Virus record (IMG/VR): IMGVR_UViG_2541047956_000009
DNA length: 8,508 nt
Reading direction: 5' to 3' (one strand)
Source: a virus
Taxonomy: Duplodnaviria; Heunggongvirae; Uroviricota; Caudoviricetes
Numbering within the stretch: position 1 is the first letter of the stretch; each line of letters starts with the position of its first letter. Made by a program: the position numbers and the translations under genes. Below the pieces are notes generated by a model. It worked only from the letters and a program-made list of their open reading frames with translations. It had not been told where the DNA came from and ran no database searches. Of this stretch, positions 1 through 6,652 are shown piece by piece.

Positions 1-2241
1 ACAGAGCTTGTGGAGGACACGCAGGCCATTGCCCGTTACGGTCGTAACGTCACGAAGATGGATGCCTTTGGCTGTACCAGTCGGGGGCAGGCACACCGAG
101 CCGGGCTGTGGCTGATTAAAACGGAACTGCTGGAAACGCAGACCGTGGATTTCAGCGTGGGCGCAGAAGGGCTTCGCCATGTGCCGGGCGATGTTATTGA
201 AATCTGCGATGATGACTATGCGGGTATCAGCATCGGCGGGCGCGTGCTGGCGGTGAACAGCCAGACCCGGACGCTGACGCTCGACCGTGAAATCACTCTG
301 CCATCCTCCGGTACCACGCTGATAAGCCTGGTTGACGGAAGCGGCAATCCGGTCAGCGTGGAGGTCCAGTCCGTCACCGACGGCGTGAAGGTAAAAGTGA
401 GCCGGGTTCCTGACGGCGTTGCCGGATACAGCGTGTGGGGGCTGAAGTTGCCGACGTTGCGCCAGCGCCTGTTCCGCTGCGTGAGTATCCGGGAGAACGA
501 TGACGGTACGTATGCCATCACCGCCGTGCAGCATGTACCGGAAAAAGAAGCCATCGTGGATAACGGGGCGCACTTTGACGGTGACCAGAGCGGCACGGTG
601 AATGGTGTCATGCCGCCAGCGGTGCAGCACCTGACCGCCGAAGTCACCGCAGACAGCGGGGAATATCAGGTGCTGGCGCGCTGGGACACGCCGAAGGTGG
701 TGAAGGGGGTGAGCTTTATGCTTCGCCTGACCGTGGCAGCGGATGACGGCAGTGAGCGGCTGGTCAGCACGGCCCGGACGACGGAAACCACATACCGCTT
801 CAGGCAACTGGCGCCAGGGAACTACAGGCTGACAGTCCGGGCGGCAAATGCCTGGGGACAGCAGGGCGATCCGGCGTCGGTATTGTTCCGGATTGCCGCA
901 CCGGCAGCGCCGTCGCGGATTGAGCTGACGCCGGGCTATTTTCAGATAACCGCCACGCCGCATCTTGCCGTTTATGATCCGACGGTACAGTTTGAATTCT
1001 GGTTCTCGGAAAAGCGGATTGCGGATATCAGGCAGGTTGAAACCACAGCCCGCTATCTTGGCACGGCGCTGTACTGGATAGCTGCCAGTATCAATATCAA
1101 GCCGGGCCATGATTATTATTTTTACATCCGCAGTGTGAACACCGTTGGCAAATCGGCATTCGTGGAGGCTGTTGGCCAGCCGAGTGATGATGCATCCGGC
1201 TATCTGGATTTTTTCAAAGGAGAGATAGGGAAAACCCATCTGGCTCAGGAGTTGTGGACGCAGATTGATAACGGTCAGCTTGCGCCTGACCTGGCGGAAA
1301 TCAGAACGTCCATCACGGATGTCAGTAATGAAATCACGCAGACCGTCAATAAGAAACTGGAAGACCAGAGTGCAGCGATCCAGCAGATACAGAAGGTTCA
1401 GGTTGATACAAATAATAACCTGAACAGCATGTGGGCTGTGAAGCTGCAGCAGATGCAGGACGGACGCCTTTATATCGCGGGTATTGGTGCCGGTATTGAA
1501 AACACCCCTGACGGCATGCAGAGTCAGGTGCTGCTGGCGGCAGACAGGATTGCGATGATTAATCCTGCGAATGGCAACACAAAGCCGATGTTTGTTGGTC
1601 AGGGCGATCAGATATTTATGAATGAAGTGTTCCTGAAATATCTGACGGCTCCCACCATTACCAGCGGCGGTAATCCTCCGGCATTTTCCCTGACACCGGA
1701 CGGGCGGCTGACGGCGAAAAATGCCGATATCAGCGGTAACGTGAATGCGAACTCCGGGACGCTCAACAACGTCACGATTAACGAGAACTGTCGGGTTCTG
1801 GGAAAACTGTCCGCGAACCAGATTGAAGGCGATCTCGTTAAAACAGTGGGCAAAGCTTTCCCCCGGGACTCCCGTGCACCGGAGCGGTGGCCATCAGGGA
1901 CCATTACCGTCAGGGTTTATGACGATCAGCCGTTTGACCGGCAGATTGTTATTCCGGCGGTGGCATTCAGCGGCGCTAAACATGAGAGAGAGCATACTGA
2001 TATTTACTCCTCATGCCGTCTGATAGTGCGGAAAAACGGTGCTGAAATTTATAACCGTACCGCGCTGGATAATACGCTGATTTACAGTGGCGTTATTGAT
2101 ATGCCTGCCGGTCACGGTCACATGACGCTGGAGTTTTCGGTGTCAGCATGGCTGGTAAATGACTGGTATCCCACAGCAAGTATCAGCGATTTGCTGGTTG
2201 TGGTGATGAAGAAAGCCACTGCAGGCATCACGATTAGCTGA
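1..2241 (+). CDS. J: Tail tip / host-specificity protein J, C-terminal ~746 aa (5' end outside window)
   Basis: Frame-1 ORF is open from base 1 (the listed GTG at 10 is an internal codon) to TGA at 2239-2241. The N-terminal part of the translation ([51 protein letters not shown]...) matches lambda gpJ as I recall it almost residue for residue; the C-terminal part is recognisably J-like but divergent. Confidence 0.93.
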
Positions 2242-2260
2242 ATTTTATAACCCAGATACG

Positions 2261-2287
2261 GGCGCCAGAAATGGCGCCTTTTTTATT
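2261..2287 (+). terminator. Intrinsic terminator downstream of J
   Basis: Perfect inverted repeat GGCGCC (2261-2266) / GGCGCC (2273-2278) with a 6-nt loop, followed directly by TTTTTTATT. Confidence 0.6.
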
Positions 2288-2308
2288 GCAGAAAAGCGAG
2301 AGGTAATT

Positions 2309-2908
2309 ATGCGTAAATTATGTGCTGTTATTCTGTCCGCAGTAGTCTGGCTGGTTGCCGCTGGTACGCCAGCGAGCGCAGCAGAGCATCAGTCCACACT
2401 AAGCGCCGGGTATCTTCAGACCCATACTGATATGCCAGGCAGCGATGACCTGAAGGGCATTAACGTGAAATACCGTTATGAATTTACGGACACGCTGGGG
2501 CTGGTGACGTCATTCAGCTATGCAGGAGACAAGAATCGCCAGCTTACCCGTTACAGCGATACCCGCAGGCATGAAGATTCCGTTCGTAACCGCTGGTTCA
2601 GCGTGATGGCGGGGCCATCTGTACGCGTGAATGAATGGTTCAGTGCTTATGCGATGGCAGGTGTGGCTTACAGCCGTGTTTCGACGTTCTCCGGGGATTA
2701 TCTCCGCGTAACTGACAACAAGGGGAAAACGCACGATGTGCTGACCGGAAGTGATGACGATCGCCACAGCAACACGTCTCTGGCGTGGGGAGCTGGCGTG
2801 CAGTTTAACCCGACCGAATCCGTGGCCATTGATATTGCTTATGAAGGCTCCGGCAGTGGCGACTGGCGCACTGACGGTTTCATCGTGGGTGTCGGTTATA
2901 AGTTCTGA
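2309..2908 (+). CDS. lom: Lom-family outer membrane beta-barrel protein (Ail/PagC/OmpX family)
   Basis: 199-aa ORF with a signal-peptide-like N-terminus ([35 protein letters not shown]...) and a C-terminal ...[10 protein letters not shown] ending in aromatic residue. Closely matches lambda Lom as recalled. GAGAGG Shine-Dalgarno 8 nt upstream of ATG 2309; position immediately after J as in lambda. Confidence 0.92.
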
Positions 2909-2934
2909 TTAGCCAGGTAACACAGTGTTATGAC

Positions 2935-2962
2935 AGCCCGCCGGTTCAGGCGGGCTTTTTTG
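2935..2962 (+). terminator. Intrinsic terminator downstream of lom
   Basis: Stem AGCCCGCC (2935-2942) / GGCGGGCT (2949-2956) with loop GGTTCA, followed by TTTTTT (2957-2962). Confidence 0.6.
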
Positions 2963-2972
2963 TGGAGTGGAT

Positions 2973-5330
2973 ATGGCAGCAGTAAAAATCTCAGGTGTGC
3001 TGAAAGATGGTGCGGGAAAACCAATACAGAACTGCACTATTCAACTGAAGGCAAAGCGTAACAGCACCACGGTACTGGTGAACACGGTGGCTTCTGAAAA
3101 TCCGGATGAAGCCGGACGTTACAGCATGGATGTTGAGTATGGCCAGTACAGCGTCACCCTGCTGGTTGAAGGTTTTCCGCCTTCACATGCCGGGACCATT
3201 ACCGTCTATGAAGGCTCCAGACCAGGTACGCTGAATGATTTTCTCGGTGCCATGACGGAAGAGGATGTCATGCCGGAGGCATTGCGTCGTTTTGAGGAAA
3301 TGGTGGAAGAAGCGGCACGCAACGCTGAAGCCGCCTCTCAGAGCGCAGCGGCGGCAAAGAAATCCGAAACTGCAGCGGCATCATCGAAGAACGCGGCGAA
3401 AACCTCAGAAACGAATGCAGCTAATAGTGCACAGGCGGCAGCGACCTCAAAGACTGCATCGGCAAACTCCGCGACAGCAGCCAAAAAATCAGAAACCAAC
3501 GCGAAAAATAGCGAGACAGCCGCAAAGACGAGCGAAACCAACGCAAAGTCCAGCCAGACGGCAGCGAAAACCAGCGAAACGAATGCCAAAGCCAGTGAAA
3601 CTGCGGCGAAAAATAGCCAGAATGCAGCAGCCGAAAGCGAGAGTGCGGCAGCTGGTTCTGCGACTTCAGCAGCTGGATCAGCAACTGCTGCGGCTAACAG
3701 CCAGAAAGCAGCGAAGACGAGCGAAACTAACGCAAAGTCCAGCCAGACGGCAGCGAAGACCAGCGAAACGAATGCCAAAGCCAGCGAAACTGCGGCGAAA
3801 AGCAGTCAGGATGCAGCAGCCCAAAGCGAGAGTGCCGCAGCTGGTTCTGCAACAGCGGCAGCTAATAGCCAAAAAGCTGCAAAAACCAGTGAAACTAACG
3901 CAAAGACGAGTGAAACAAAAGCAGCAGCTAGCGAGACAGAAGCAACGTCAGCCGCAACAAGAGCAGAGAATGCAGCCCGGATTGCAGAAGATGCCGCTGA
4001 TCCTGCTTCTGTCCCTCCGCTTCCTGATATCTGGCTACCCTTGAATGATTCTCTGGAAGCGATAACAGGGTATGCCCCGGGCTATAAAACAATAACCATC
4101 GGCAGTGATGAAATAACAATGCCTGTTAATGGCATATGCCAATTTAGCCGGGCTTCATCTGCAACGTATATTGATAAGTCCGGGCATATTACCGTGGCAG
4201 GGAATAACGTTCCTCGTTTTGAAAAATATGGTTTGCTGATAGAGAATCAGCGAACAAACATGTTCGTAAATAGTTTTAATCCTGATGCCTGGAATAAAAG
4301 CGGTGGTATATCTGTAACATCATCAACAGATGAATTTGAGTTTAAATATGGACGTTTCACGGTAGGAAGCGATATAGCAGGAACGACAACAGGGAGAAAT
4401 ATATGCACAGTTGCTGGTAACAAAGGCATAGATGTGACTGGCGATGATCAGTACAGTAAAGGTCCGTATGTTACCGCGTCGTTCAGGGTAAGAAGTGATC
4501 TCAATGTTCGCGCACGTATCCGTTTTGAACGGTATAACTCGGAAGGATACACCTTCCTTTGCGATGCCTATTTGTCATTACAGACCCATGAACTACAAAT
4601 TACTGGTGGCAATGCCCAGCTATTAACAGCAAACTTTGAAATCGATCCTGGTAGTGGATGGATATACTTTCAGGCAACACTGAAATGTCTGCCAGAATGG
4701 GGAATGGTTGGTACGCAGCTGCAAATTGCAGCCGACAGAGCTGTGGGGTCTTTTGCAACAGGTGACTGGATAGAAGTAACCACCCCGCAATTCGAGTATG
4801 GTGCTTGTGCAACTTCCTTCATCATAACGACAACAGAGCCAGCGACTCGTGCATCAGATTTATGTAAATTTCCGCTGATGAAAAATATGTATACCATGCC
4901 TTTTACGTTCATGGTGGAAGTCCATAAAAACTGGTTTATTTCTCATAATGCTGCACCGCGTGTCATTGATTCAGAAAATCACCAGTCCGGAGGCCCATTT
5001 ATTATGGGGTTTGGTTCTTCTGGAACTATTAGTCAGGACGGTTATTCGTATTGCGATATAGGCGGGGCTAACCGACGTGTATATGAATCATGCGGAGTAA
5101 GGGATCTCGTTATGGGATTCAGGGTTAAGGCTGACGGCATGACATGCTCATTTGCAAATAAGCATATAAGCACTGAAACAAAAACAGTATGGAAATATAT
5201 TCGTGAAGCAGCCGTGATTCGTATCGGGGGGCAAACGACGACAGGATTACGACACCTTAATGGTCATATAAAAAACCTCCGTTTCTGGAACAGAGCATTG
5301 TCAGATACGCAGCTTAAGGAATACGTATAA
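2973..5330 (+). CDS. stf: Side tail fibre protein (Stf-like): lambda-type N-terminus, Ala/Ser/Thr/Lys-rich repeat shaft, divergent C-terminal receptor-binding region
   Basis: N-terminus MAAVKISGVLKDGAGKPIQNCTIQLKAKRNSTTVLVNTVASENPDEAGRYSMDVEYGQYSV... matches the lambda Stf N-terminus as recalled. ATG at 2973 with GGAG 5 nt upstream is the likely start (the ORF track's 2967 is an upstream GTG). A long low-complexity AAKTSETNAK-type repeat region is followed by ~440 aa unlike lambda Stf, ending ...IKNLRFWNRALSDTQLKEYV, a motif I recognise from LamG/concanavalin-A-like lectin domains. Confidence 0.85.
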   Translation: MAAVKISGVLKDGAGKPIQNCTIQLKAKRNSTTVLVNTVASENPDEAGRYSMDVEYGQYSVTLLVEGFPPSHAGTITVYEGSRPGTLNDFLGAMTEEDVMPEALRRFEEMVEEAARNAEAASQSAAAAKKSETAAASSKNAAKTSETNAANSAQAAATSKTASANSATAAKKSETNAKNSETAAKTSETNAKSSQTAAKTSETNAKASETAAKNSQNAAAESESAAAGSATSAAGSATAAANSQKAAKTSETNAKSSQTAAKTSETNAKASETAAKSSQDAAAQSESAAAGSATAAANSQKAAKTSETNAKTSETKAAASETEATSAATRAENAARIAEDAADPASVPPLPDIWLPLNDSLEAITGYAPGYKTITIGSDEITMPVNGICQFSRASSATYIDKSGHITVAGNNVPRFEKYGLLIENQRTNMFVNSFNPDAWNKSGGISVTSSTDEFEFKYGRFTVGSDIAGTTTGRNICTVAGNKGIDVTGDDQYSKGPYVTASFRVRSDLNVRARIRFERYNSEGYTFLCDAYLSLQTHELQITGGNAQLLTANFEIDPGSGWIYFQATLKCLPEWGMVGTQLQIAADRAVGSFATGDWIEVTTPQFEYGACATSFIITTTEPATRASDLCKFPLMKNMYTMPFTFMVEVHKNWFISHNAAPRVIDSENHQSGGPFIMGFGSSGTISQDGYSYCDIGGANRRVYESCGVRDLVMGFRVKADGMTCSFANKHISTETKTVWKYIREAAVIRIGGQTTTGLRHLNGHIKNLRFWNRALSDTQLKEYV
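3525..3885 (+). repeat. Intragenic direct tandem duplication (~189 bp unit, second copy ~21 bp shorter) within stf
   Basis: The sequence from 3525 (aagacgagcgaaaccaacgcaaagtccagccagacggcagcgaaaaccagcgaaacgaatgccaaagccag...) recurs from 3714 (aagacgagcgaaactaacgcaaagtccagccagacggcagcgaagaccagcgaaacgaatgccaaagccag...) with few mismatches. Protein level: KTSETNAKSSQTAAKTSETNAKASETAAK...SESAAAGSAT...AANSQKAA occurs twice. A shorter degenerate SETNAK-type periodicity spans ~3340-3960. Confidence 0.75.
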
Positions 5331-5599
5331 TGCGGGATATAACATTACGATTCGATAACAGAGAACAGTTTAACGCAATTGTATATGACAGTGGCCTGTT
5401 CAGTCTTGAAGAAGAAAACGGGGTTCTTGTTGATGTTATTGGCTGCATTATCGATTACGAGGAGCCAGAAAACGAAAGATGTACAGGCATTGATCGCGGT
5501 GGTTTTTTCGTAAACATGAGGATTGTTGATAGCAGTAAAAACATATCTTCTTTAATGCCTTTCATTACGACAGATCAGCATGTAAGGACATGGGCTTAA
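5330..5599 (+). CDS. Hypothetical 89-aa acidic protein, translationally coupled to stf
   Basis: ATG at 5330-5332 overlaps the stf TAA stop (5328-5330) in the sequence ATAATG; AAGGA 9 nt upstream. AT-rich. No family recognised and no resemblance to lambda Tfa. Confidence 0.5.
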   Translation: MRDITLRFDNREQFNAIVYDSGLFSLEEENGVLVDVIGCIIDYEEPENERCTGIDRGGFFVNMRIVDSSKNISSLMPFITTDQHVRTWA

Positions 5600-5611
5600 T
5601 GGAGTAAGACA

Positions 5612-6652
5612 ATGGTTACAAAAACAGTAATTCCTGATGATATCAAAACGCTAAAATCCGACGTTAGCAAATTAAAAAACGATCAAGGGAGCTACGCAAC
5701 AAAATCATATGTAGACAATAAAACAACATGGAATAGTTATTGCAATGTAATCTATGATCAAAAGACATTGCCGACCACTGGAACTATATTTAGCGGTAAG
5801 ATTCACTTGTCAAATAAGACAGGAGAAACCGAAAACGCTTATAGTGAGATGTACACCAGAAAAAATATTGACGGTACAAAAGATACAATGACAAGGATTG
5901 TCACACACAATGGAACAAAAGGTATCTTTTGGGATTTTAGCGATCTTTACGGCGGAACATTAATTTTTCCAGGCAGTGATGGTTACCTTAAGATGGGGAA
6001 CTGTCTCATGTCGTATGGTGTGCGGGGAAGTAACGCGCTTATTAAGTTTGACTGCACAGACACATTACAAATCAAATATGCTAATCACGGGTCGACCATG
6101 ACACTAAACACGCAAGGTACGGCGTATTCTGGTGTGTCGACGTTATTATGGGGAAATTCCAGTCGTCCAGTTGTTTATGAAATTAGGGATGATGGCGGGC
6201 TTTTTTTGTTTTATGCACAAAGGAACCCAGATAAAACCTATCAGCTTGAGATAAACGGGCCATGCAAGGCAACATCATTCGACCAGGTGTCGGACAGAGA
6301 TCTTAAAGAAAACATTCGGGTTATTGATAATGCCACTGAACGCATCAGATTAATGAATGGGTATACTTACCGTCTCAAGTCTAATGGTATGCCTTATGCT
6401 GGCGTTATTGCGCAAGAGGCACTTAATGCAATCCCTGAATCAGTTGGTAGCACAATAAAGTACAAGAGCGGGGACAATGGGTCTGATGGAGAAGAGGGAG
6501 AAAGATACTATACCGTCGATTACTCAGGCGTAACGGGTTTGCTTGTTCAGGTAGCCAGAGAGTCAGACGACAGAATAACAGCACTGGAAGAAGAAAACGC
6601 AGAATTAAAACAAAGATTATCTGCAATTGAGGCGGCGCTTGCGTCCAAATAA
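5612..6652 (+). CDS. Tail-fibre-like protein with C-terminal intramolecular chaperone (peptidase S74-type) autoproteolytic domain
   Basis: 346-aa ORF, GGAG 7 nt upstream of ATG 5612. C-terminal ~120 aa (...FDQVSDRDLKENIRVIDNATERIRLMNGYTYRLKSNG...AGVIAQEALNAIPESV...DDRITALEEENAELKQRLSAIEAAL) has the S-D-x-x-x-K-E-N-I signature and terminal helical segment typical of self-cleaving chaperone domains of endosialidases and L-shaped tail fibres. The N-terminal ~225 aa is Thr/Gly/Asn/Tyr-rich and of unknown fold. Confidence 0.75.
   Translation: MVTKTVIPDDIKTLKSDVSKLKNDQGSYATKSYVDNKTTWNSYCNVIYDQKTLPTTGTIFSGKIHLSNKTGETENAYSEMYTRKNIDGTKDTMTRIVTHNGTKGIFWDFSDLYGGTLIFPGSDGYLKMGNCLMSYGVRGSNALIKFDCTDTLQIKYANHGSTMTLNTQGTAYSGVSTLLWGNSSRPVVYEIRDDGGLFLFYAQRNPDKTYQLEINGPCKATSFDQVSDRDLKENIRVIDNATERIRLMNGYTYRLKSNGMPYAGVIAQEALNAIPESVGSTIKYKSGDNGSDGEEGERYYTVDYSGVTGLLVQVARESDDRITALEEENAELKQRLSAIEAALASK

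Follow-up and report, generated by a model that had tools for sequence, protein, structure and literature searches.

Evidence that a nine-heptad block in the shaft of a lambda-type side tail fibre was duplicated in frame long ago, has been conserved and rarely collapses to one copy

In this study, an stf-like side tail fibre gene was examined in the window, that is, the whole stretch of 8,508 nucleotides of phage DNA that was analysed. The gene lies downstream of J (J domains, ORF 10-2241) and lom (Ail/Lom, ORF 2309-2908), and the same annotated gene order surrounds the fibre gene in phages PhiR46_1 and vB_EcoS-640R1. Phage PhiR55_1 matches window positions 1-5655 at 98.1% identity, with a 'side tail fiber protein' annotated within the matched part. 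The ORF has 787 codons when counted from the GTG at 2967, and the true start is likely to be the ATG at 2973, giving MAAVKISG.... The gene and the parts of its product are as follows.

2967..5330, plus strand: stf-like side tail fibre gene, recognised from the ORF list, translation, Pfam and phrog
2979..3257, plus strand: collar domain, aa 5-97, matching the Ur-lambda Stf collar chain 9e7m_Ta (E=7e-49)
3309..3998, plus strand: putative proximal coiled-coil shaft, aa 115-344, from 33 uninterrupted heptads, a helical AF2 model and the correspondence with Ur-lambda
3999..5327, plus strand: neck (DPASVPPLPDIW) and distal part, a variable module on the conserved collar and shaft

The encoded protein carries the Pfam domain PF08400 (phage_tail_N) over aa 5-134 (E=2.2e-66) and matches phrog_1419 'tail protein' along its full length. 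In Ur-lambda the collar attaches the fibre to the tail (PMC12617516). The distal part, which is presumably receptor-binding, contains the NCBIfam domain GTA_spike_fiber at aa 424-629, and the gene is followed by an ORF of phrog_1361 (unknown function) and then by a fibre-like protein with a Peptidase_S74 chaperone domain. Neither a Tfa chaperone nor any of the lambda-type C-terminal families was identified by the family libraries in the distal part or in the downstream ORFs. The protein therefore belongs to the lambda-type side tail fibres through its collar and shaft module only.

The shaft keeps a strict heptad register, with alanine at position 2 in 31 of 32 heptads, serine at position 5 in 29 of 32, and a peak of alanine periodicity at 7.0. 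The AF2 monomer model predicts helix over aa 102-227 and 236-344, separated by a break at aa 228-235, in Gly-rich heptads, where the modelled rod is folded back. We treated this break as an artefact of modelling a monomer because similar AF3 misfolding was reported by the authors for the Ur-lambda fibre (PMC12617516), though it could be a real flexible point. Cryo-EM and AF3 modelling of Ur-lambda Stf describe a collar at residues 1-91, a linker, and a proximal trimeric coiled coil at 102-393 (PMC12617516), to which aa 115-344 of the present protein appear to correspond. By analogy, the coiled coil of the shaft would be trimeric as well.

Within this shaft, a tandem repeat with a unit of 189 bp spans 3510-3923 and is a real feature of the window. 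Its units, with borders set in heptad phase, were delimited as listed below.

3519..3707, plus strand: unit A, 189 nt = 63 aa = 9 heptads (AAKTSET NAKSSQT AAKTSET NAKASET AAKNSQN AAAESES AAAGSAT SAAGSAT AAANSQK), from Tandem Repeats Finder, dot-plot and heptad table
3666..3686, plus strand: heptad SAAGSAT, present in unit A and missing in unit B, from gapped alignment and heptad table; the placement of the 21-bp gap is ambiguous between this heptad and the adjoining AAAGSAT (3645-3665)
3708..3875, plus strand: unit B, 168 nt = 56 aa = 8 heptads, colinear with unit A without one Gly-containing heptad
3876..3917, plus strand: partial third copy, AAKTSET NAKTSET, two heptads repeating the unit head, from Tandem Repeats Finder and heptad table

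The original prediction had placed a near-perfect tandem block with an indel of about 21 bp at 3525-3713 and 3714-3882, in frame within the Stf shaft. Its coordinates, period and indel were correct, and the translation together with the heptad register bore out the frame and the location, while the wording "near-perfect" overstated the identity: when aligned, the two segments agree at 152 positions and differ at 16, apart from a single 21-nt gap (90.5% identity). Tandem Repeats Finder reported a period of 189 with 1.8-2.1 copies, at 3510-3850 (91% matches) and 3521-3923 (2.1 copies). Similarly, the self dot-plot displayed, as had been anticipated, a single dominant off-diagonal at offset 189 over 3510-3674 (165 nt, 89.7% identity, score 114), which moves to offset 168 past 3674, indicating that the second copy is 21 nt short. 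Four ORFs in other frames run over the repeat, at 3338-3778, 3421-3684 and 3678-3872 (all minus) and 3265-4044 (plus), which we attributed to the periodicity of the GCN-rich codons.

The longer low-complexity surroundings of AAKTSETNAK type were also confirmed, as a background periodicity of 21 and 42 nt (AAKTSET/NAKSSQT type) is present in the array. Considering that the entire 690-nt region is made of similar 21-nt and 42-nt units, the likeness of A and B might have arisen by convergence, each Ala/Ser-rich heptad being constrained to nearly the same sequence, with no true duplication at all. We consider this extremely improbable, for 8-9 heptads follow in identical order in both blocks and the identity covers most synonymous third positions. 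Moreover, when the 21-nt heptad blocks of 3309-3980 were shuffled 200 times, the best diagonal scored 26.7 +/- 4.7 with a maximum of 48, against the 114 observed, and other offsets in multiples of 21 scored 33 or less. The repeat thus exceeds chance even for a low-complexity heptad array.

The distribution of the two units was investigated in 80 IMG/VR loci selected by the collar domain alone which, together with the window, gave 81 alleles. The unit lengths were (63,63) aa in 62 of them and (63,56) in 16, while one allele had a single unit and one was truncated; the remaining allele, counted apart from the 78 parsed two-unit loci, was also (63,63). Both units were therefore present in 79 of the 80 scorable alleles. 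Among the 77 complete fibres, the two-unit shaft was common to at least 12 distal-domain classes (<80% identity), whose divergence starts past the array, at the neck. A 761-nt query against complete E. coli genomes was covered to at least 80% in one place in 131 of them, and all 40 matches listed keep the identical layout at 97.4-98.8% identity. Among these near-identical relatives copy number does not vary, and two units are the normal state of this fibre clade. The expectation that shaft length varies between isolates was accordingly upheld in one part only: copy number does differ and is not identical in all relatives, yet single-unit alleles are rare.

More distant lambda-type Stf lineages are without the 63-aa duplication. 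By a crude composition measure, shaft length in representatives at 50% identity covered a wide range, to about 370 aa, a measure that is broken by His, Val and Leu in lambda-type coils. Additionally, a megablast match of PhiR46_1 ending at 3863 at first suggested a mosaic junction where unit B ends; the PhiR46_1 protein proved to be an ordinary (63,63) allele whose alignment overran a few bases, and so the array edge was dropped as a module-swap point.

For many homologues in the databases the protein is only partial, cut off where a contig breaks within this gene, a pattern which might raise the suspicion of a misassembled repetitive gene. Nevertheless, numerous genomes that were finished independently of one another contain the identical array, as do isolated phages such as PhiR55_1; it is found in long-read assemblies, and the 16 differing positions make the units easy to resolve, so that the chance of an assembly artefact is practically negligible.

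Regarding the age of the repeat, the identity of A to B is 89.9% inside one locus and 89.7% across loci, as compared with 96.0% for A-A and 95.5% for B-B, and the two units form separate orthologous sets within the clade. The per-locus identity of A and B ranged over 84-93% with dS of 0.29-1.05; dS(A,B) was 0.38 in the window and 0.48 on average, whereas orthologous copies gave 0.12-0.15 for the units and 0.08 for the collar. The copies are not kept nearly identical by recent or concerted homogenisation. With a dN of about 0.03 between A and B and a dN/dS of about 0.07, both units are held by purifying selection.

The high identity of the copies had been read as the sign of a recent duplication, with a fibre length made hypervariable between isolates by ongoing expansion and contraction. 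Direct repeats of at least 165 nt at 90% identity are indeed adequate recombination substrates, and single-unit alleles do exist. Against this, an A/B dS of about 0.4-0.5 is three to five times the divergence of orthologous copies (0.08-0.15 with the collar included), and A and B are recognisable in the 78 parsed loci and one more, across at least 12 distal domains. Although point divergence amounts to 1-2.6%, the 40 listed E. coli matches all have exactly the same layout, and a single-unit allele is found in only 5 records among 5,426 complete E. coli genomes. A recent origin is refuted by these figures, and a hypervariable fibre is very unlikely.

Single-unit alleles came from several protein clusters, from one IMG/VR locus and from the 5 complete-genome records, and their span from anchor to neck is 194 aa as against 257 aa, exactly 63 aa shorter. 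All four that were followed at the DNA level (L067, L081, L082 and L083) are chimeras with the head of A and the tail of B, as would be expected if the copies had undergone unequal homologous recombination or slippage. The switch from A to B falls within unit nt 21-51, 21-90 and 135-144; as the first two intervals overlap, at least two distinct crossover points are indicated. It could be argued that one unit is ancestral, that two-unit arrays arose several times and that the single-unit alleles are relics, given the distant lambda-type lineages without the duplication and a distant fibre (P0122) with a single unit. This history is also most improbable in our judgement. A and B remain separate orthologous sets with equal divergence within and between loci, the four single-unit alleles switch cleanly from A-specific to B-specific sequence at different points, and the other members of the distal-domain class of L067 have two units.

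Exchange between the units is also suggested by their polymorphism. At 17 of 147 sites the same alleles segregate in both units, and only 2 differences between A and B are fixed; the unit haplotypes are patchy A/B mosaics. These tracts point to gene conversion, although part of the shared polymorphisms could reflect recurrent mutation instead. Most other in-frame deletions in the array among relatives are multiples of 7 aa, with indels of 7, 14, 42 and 63 aa, and two database alleles display non-heptad deletions of 5 and 16 aa, meaning either that the conservation of phase is not absolute or that these are sequence errors.

Expansion was searched for in three ways. Motif counts disclosed no three-unit protein among the 298 retrieved, a set clustered at 90% identity; an artificial three-unit query returned two-unit proteins only (~80% identity, 100% coverage); and a diagnostic DNA query for the reciprocal chimera, with the head of B and the tail of A, had no match at 99% or above in the 5,426 genomes. 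Three-unit alleles may escape such searches, as 90% protein clustering can hide them and short-read assembly can collapse a fresh third copy. The proposal that these repeats serve as substrates for RecA-dependent or slipped rearrangement is hence supported for contraction, by the four chimeric alleles, while expansion has found no counterpart in a three-unit allele.

Taken together, we conclude with high confidence that a nine-heptad block in the shaft of this lambda-type Stf was duplicated in frame long ago, and that the resulting array has been conserved, with only rare collapse to one copy. The block, of 63 aa (189 bp), lies inside the proximal coiled coil, and the second unit of the window allele has lost one heptad (21 bp). 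At one end of the shaft stands the N-terminal collar, the clamp to the tail, and at the other a distal module that can be exchanged and is presumably receptor-binding. Taking a rise of about 0.15 nm per residue of coiled coil, each unit should lengthen the rod by about 8-9 nm. Because the units still share about 90% of their DNA sequence, occasional recombination between them would be expected, probably RecA-dependent or by slippage. Non-reciprocal exchange (gene conversion) would shuffle polymorphisms between the units, rare unequal crossover or slippage would remove exactly one unit and leave the A-head/B-tail chimera, and array indels, almost all multiples of 7 aa, would preserve the heptad phase.

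A further possibility, which we regard as doubtful, is that selection actively maintains the two-unit length as a setting of how far the side fibre reaches compared with the central J fibre, and that one-unit chimeras and losses of one heptad in A or B are functional short-fibre variants. If so, such variants might show altered adsorption kinetics or host-surface preference, for instance on capsulated or long-O-antigen hosts, and the Gly-containing heptads at the unit ends would be flexible joints whose number is set by the number of units.

As a feature of fibres the duplication is ordinary: it adds a new case to a known kind and reveals no new mechanism. Our literature search for a prior description of it returned only papers on general Stf architecture and engineering. 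It offers a concrete, datable case of a fibre shaft built from heptad blocks and of their fate over evolutionary time, in which selection preserves the block, the copies trade sequence with one another, and unequal recombination removes one only seldom and always in heptad phase. Those who engineer fibres, for example lambda Stf chimeras meant for delivery vectors, are offered a natural phase-preserving module of 63 aa, and its tolerance in one or two copies in nature hints at places where the shaft could be cut back or extended safely.

Comparatively, the fibre resembles Ur-lambda Stf in the position of its gene after J and lom, in the homologous collar (9e7m, E=7e-49), in the long Ala/Ser/Thr-rich heptad region behind the collar and in its modular architecture; working chimeras are obtained when N-terminal parts of lambda Stf are joined to C-terminal parts of foreign origin (PMC11338833). 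In contrast, lambda-type fibres have a heptad region that is longer, more diversified and without the 63-aa tandem duplication, and the distal module differs from that of lambda in its GTA_spike_fiber domain, in having no identified Tfa and in the second fibre-like gene with an S74 domain that follows. The L-shaped tail fibre pb1 of T5 (PDB 8hqz) is weakly similar to the heptad region at aa 160-348 (E=1.8e-6), with no collar homology or shared domain architecture found between the two proteins, and the likeness is probably due to nothing more than a comparable composition and pattern of heptads.

Heptad coiled-coil rods of tandem blocks are also known from the streptococcal M protein, in which intragenic homologous recombination yields in-frame size variants. 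The build of the rod is alike, but size variation of M protein is frequent and immunologically selected, whereas the two-unit state here is strongly conserved and contraction is rare. Among phages, exchanges at conserved motifs in gp37/gp38 of the T-even phages and fibre mosaicism in P2, Mu and lambda are well known. The present fibre is comparable to them in the use of repetitive segments as homology and in the swapping of distal modules on a conserved proximal part; what is documented here, in contrast, is exchange inside the array, by unit loss and gene conversion, and because the classes diverge only from the neck onward, the array is not indicated as the place of the module swaps.

The window represents the right-hand end of the tail module of a lambdoid prophage. 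After stf it has two small ORFs and a second fibre-like gene; its features are given below.

10-2241, ORF of J
2309-2908, ORF of lom
2967-5330, plus strand, stf-like gene, a 787-codon ORF
5330-5599, plus strand, ORF of 89 aa (phrog_1361, function unknown)
5612-6652, plus strand, fibre-like protein of 346 aa (phrog_4563) with a C-terminal Peptidase_S74
minus strand, dinI and integrase

The 787-codon ORF contains the Pfam prophage tail fibre N-terminal domain (aa 5-134, E=2e-66), aligns with phrog_1419 'tail protein' over its full length, and resembles the solved Ur-lambda Stf collar domain (PDB 9e7m) over its first 97 residues (E=7e-49). The same gene is annotated as a side tail fibre in the isolated phages PhiR46_1 and vB_EcoS-640R1, and PhiR55_1, which is 98.1% identical to window 1-5655 with no indel, has a side tail fibre feature under this match. 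The 89-aa ORF follows directly, its ATG overlapping the stf stop codon. The 346-aa protein has no collar domain, and its Peptidase_S74 is an intramolecular-chaperone domain; it could be another component of the fibre, or a branch whose attachment point is Stf instead of the tail.

Within stf, Tandem Repeats Finder detected a period-189 array of 1.8-2.1 copies at 3510-3850 and 3521-3923, with weaker 21-nt and 42-nt periodicities superimposed. A self dot-plot of 3200-4100, the kind of check proposed in the original prediction, displayed offset 189 as the single dominant off-diagonal (3510-3674, 165 nt, 89.7% identity, score 114), all offsets besides the repeat diagonal scoring at most 33; past 3674 the diagonal shifts to offset 168, the second copy being shorter by 21 nt. 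Since 200 shuffles of 32 heptad-sized blocks (3309-3980) gave a best diagonal of 26.7 +/- 4.7 and a maximum of 48, the eight to nine heptads that run colinearly in both copies stem from a true duplication, and low-complexity background does not account for them. The predicted tandem repeat of about 189 bp with a 21-nt indel was thus borne out, but 'near-perfect' was an overstatement, as the blocks named there, 3525-3713 and 3714-3882, align at 90.5% identity (152 matches, 16 mismatches, one 21-nt gap). Other ORFs overlapping the repeat (3338-3778, 3421-3684 and 3678-3872 on the minus strand; 3265-4044 on the plus strand in another frame) most likely arise from the periodic use of GCN-rich codons. 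In heptad phase, the array reads as follows.

3519-3707, plus strand, unit A, nine heptads
3645-3686 (Stf aa 227-240), two Gly-containing heptads at the end of unit A
3708-3875, plus strand, unit B, eight heptads, without one Gly-containing heptad
3876-3917, plus strand, partial third copy of two heptads

In Ur-lambda, the Stf collar (1-91) is joined through a flexible linker to a proximal trimeric coiled coil (102-393), after which come a hinge and the distal part (PMC12617516). In the window's product, aa 115-344 form 33 heptads of unbroken phase, with Ala at position 2 in 31/32 and Ser at position 5 in 29/32, and the Ala periodicity peaks at exactly 7.0. Both units lie in that phase, which makes the repeat a duplicated block within the proximal coiled-coil shaft. 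At a coiled-coil rise of about 0.15 nm per residue, the predicted contribution of one unit is about 8-9 nm, against a shaft length of about 34 nm. The AF2 monomer model places helix over aa 102-227 and 236-344; its sole break, aa 228-235, coincides with the two Gly-containing heptads (AAAGSAT SAAGSAT), and may be a flexible joint or a mere artefact of monomer folding. Unit B lacks one of these two heptads.

The comparison with relatives used 80 IMG/VR loci chosen by collar-domain similarity alone, a sample therefore unbiased toward the repeat. Together with the window (81 alleles), units of (63,63) aa were found in 62, (63,56) in 16 and a single 63-aa unit in 1; the other two were a mis-parsed (63,63) allele and a truncated contig. 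At least 12 distal classes at <80% identity were recognized among the 77 complete fibres, and the two-unit shaft is common to all of these classes; the (63,56) form goes with the window's own distal class. Among complete E. coli genomes, 131 cover at least 80% of the 761-nt query in one place, and the window's exact layout was present as one ungapped piece (97.4-98.8% identity) in 40/40 of the matches listed. Two units are the stable norm for this fibre clade, and the proposed variation in length between isolates is unsupported: copy number does vary among relatives, as single-unit alleles exist, but these are rare.

Comparatively, over the gap-free first 147 nt, A and B of the same locus are 89.9% identical (84-93%), about the same as A and B of different loci (89.7%), while identity across loci is 96.0% for A and 95.5% for B. 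The dS between A and B is 0.38 in the window and 0.48 on average over all loci, against 0.12-0.15 for orthologous units and 0.08 for the collar; dN is about 0.03 and dN/dS about 0.07. These values place the duplication before the diversification of this fibre clade and both units under purifying selection; a recent origin is refuted. Proteins P0111 and P0112, of one sub-lineage, span 257 aa with a strongly diverged first unit and B-type tails (SASAAA.SATASANSQR) in both units, a hint that their array is older or was converted differently.

The repeat does recombine, though rarely and mostly toward loss. From collar to neck the common class measures 257 aa, whereas at least seven protein clusters measure 194 aa, a difference of exactly 63; further in-frame deletions of 7, 14 and 42 aa, and one of 63 aa placed differently, occur among homologues. 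Four single-unit alleles were scored at DNA level at the 29 sites where the A and B consensus sequences differ; each starts A-like and ends B-like, the expected outcome when the two units undergo unequal crossover or slippage. L082 changes over at unit nt 21-51, L067 and L083 do so at 21-90, and L081 at 135-144; because the first two intervals overlap and the last stands apart, at least two crossover points are distinct, and such alleles originated more than once. Other members of L067's distal class have two units. Occasional gene conversion fits the same allele pair in both units at 17/147 sites, only 2 fixed A/B differences, and the short B-like tracts within A, or A-like within B, of many haplotypes.

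As recombination substrates, the direct repeats are thus supported for contraction but not for expansion: an artificial three-unit query returned two-unit proteins only (about 80% identity, full coverage), none of the 298 retrieved proteins had three units, and a DNA query made as the reciprocal B-head/A-tail chimera had no match of at least 99% among 5,426 complete genomes. Finished genomes seldom carry single-unit alleles: a single-unit query was matched at full length in a single piece by 5 of the 1,949 records with any match. A lineage of span +168 from this search fits the 250-aa class, unit A minus one heptad (P0274), a loss independent of that in the window's unit B.

The distal classes start to diverge at the neck, after the array, and an apparent mosaic break at 3863 is only alignment run-on, so the array is not shown to be a swap site of distal modules. 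The window's distal Stf is not the lambda OmpC-binding C-terminus, and its receptor probably differs from lambda's; an NCBIfam 'phage head spike fiber' (GTA_spike_fiber) domain was noticed there (aa 424-629, 4236-4853, E=2e-12). Dozens of near-identical homologues are 'partial' with lengths scattered over 495-630 aa, indicating that short-read contigs break within the distal half; this agrees with fibre sequence being shared by several prophages in one genome, the matching places per complete E. coli genome having a median of 2 and a maximum of 11.

The best-supported reading is an old, conserved, rarely recombining block duplication in the side-fibre rod. On this reading, an ancient duplication of nine heptads lengthens the proximal coiled coil in a side fibre of lambda type, selection keeps it as part of a collar-plus-shaft module serving as mount for diverse distal modules, and low-frequency intra-array recombination preserves the heptad phase. 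For fibre engineering it has some practical use, as a shaft module that occurs in nature and keeps the heptad phase. Coiled-coil rods are well known to gain and lose blocks by duplication and deletion, as fibre genes are to be mosaic; our literature search found no earlier description of this 63-aa duplication. The window protein belongs to the Stf family by collar and shaft, sharing also the place after J and lom, but the lambda-type distal domain and Tfa chaperone are absent; lambda-type relatives, in contrast, have a longer and more diversified heptad region without the 63-aa duplication. P0136, an 881-aa Stf relative, harbors at aa ~360-447 a 44-aa hinge motif (KGIVQLSSATNSTSE..ATPKAVK...) that is perfectly duplicated in tandem (35/35 matches at offset 44), and as this is a different Stf lineage, block duplication recurs elsewhere in the fibre family.
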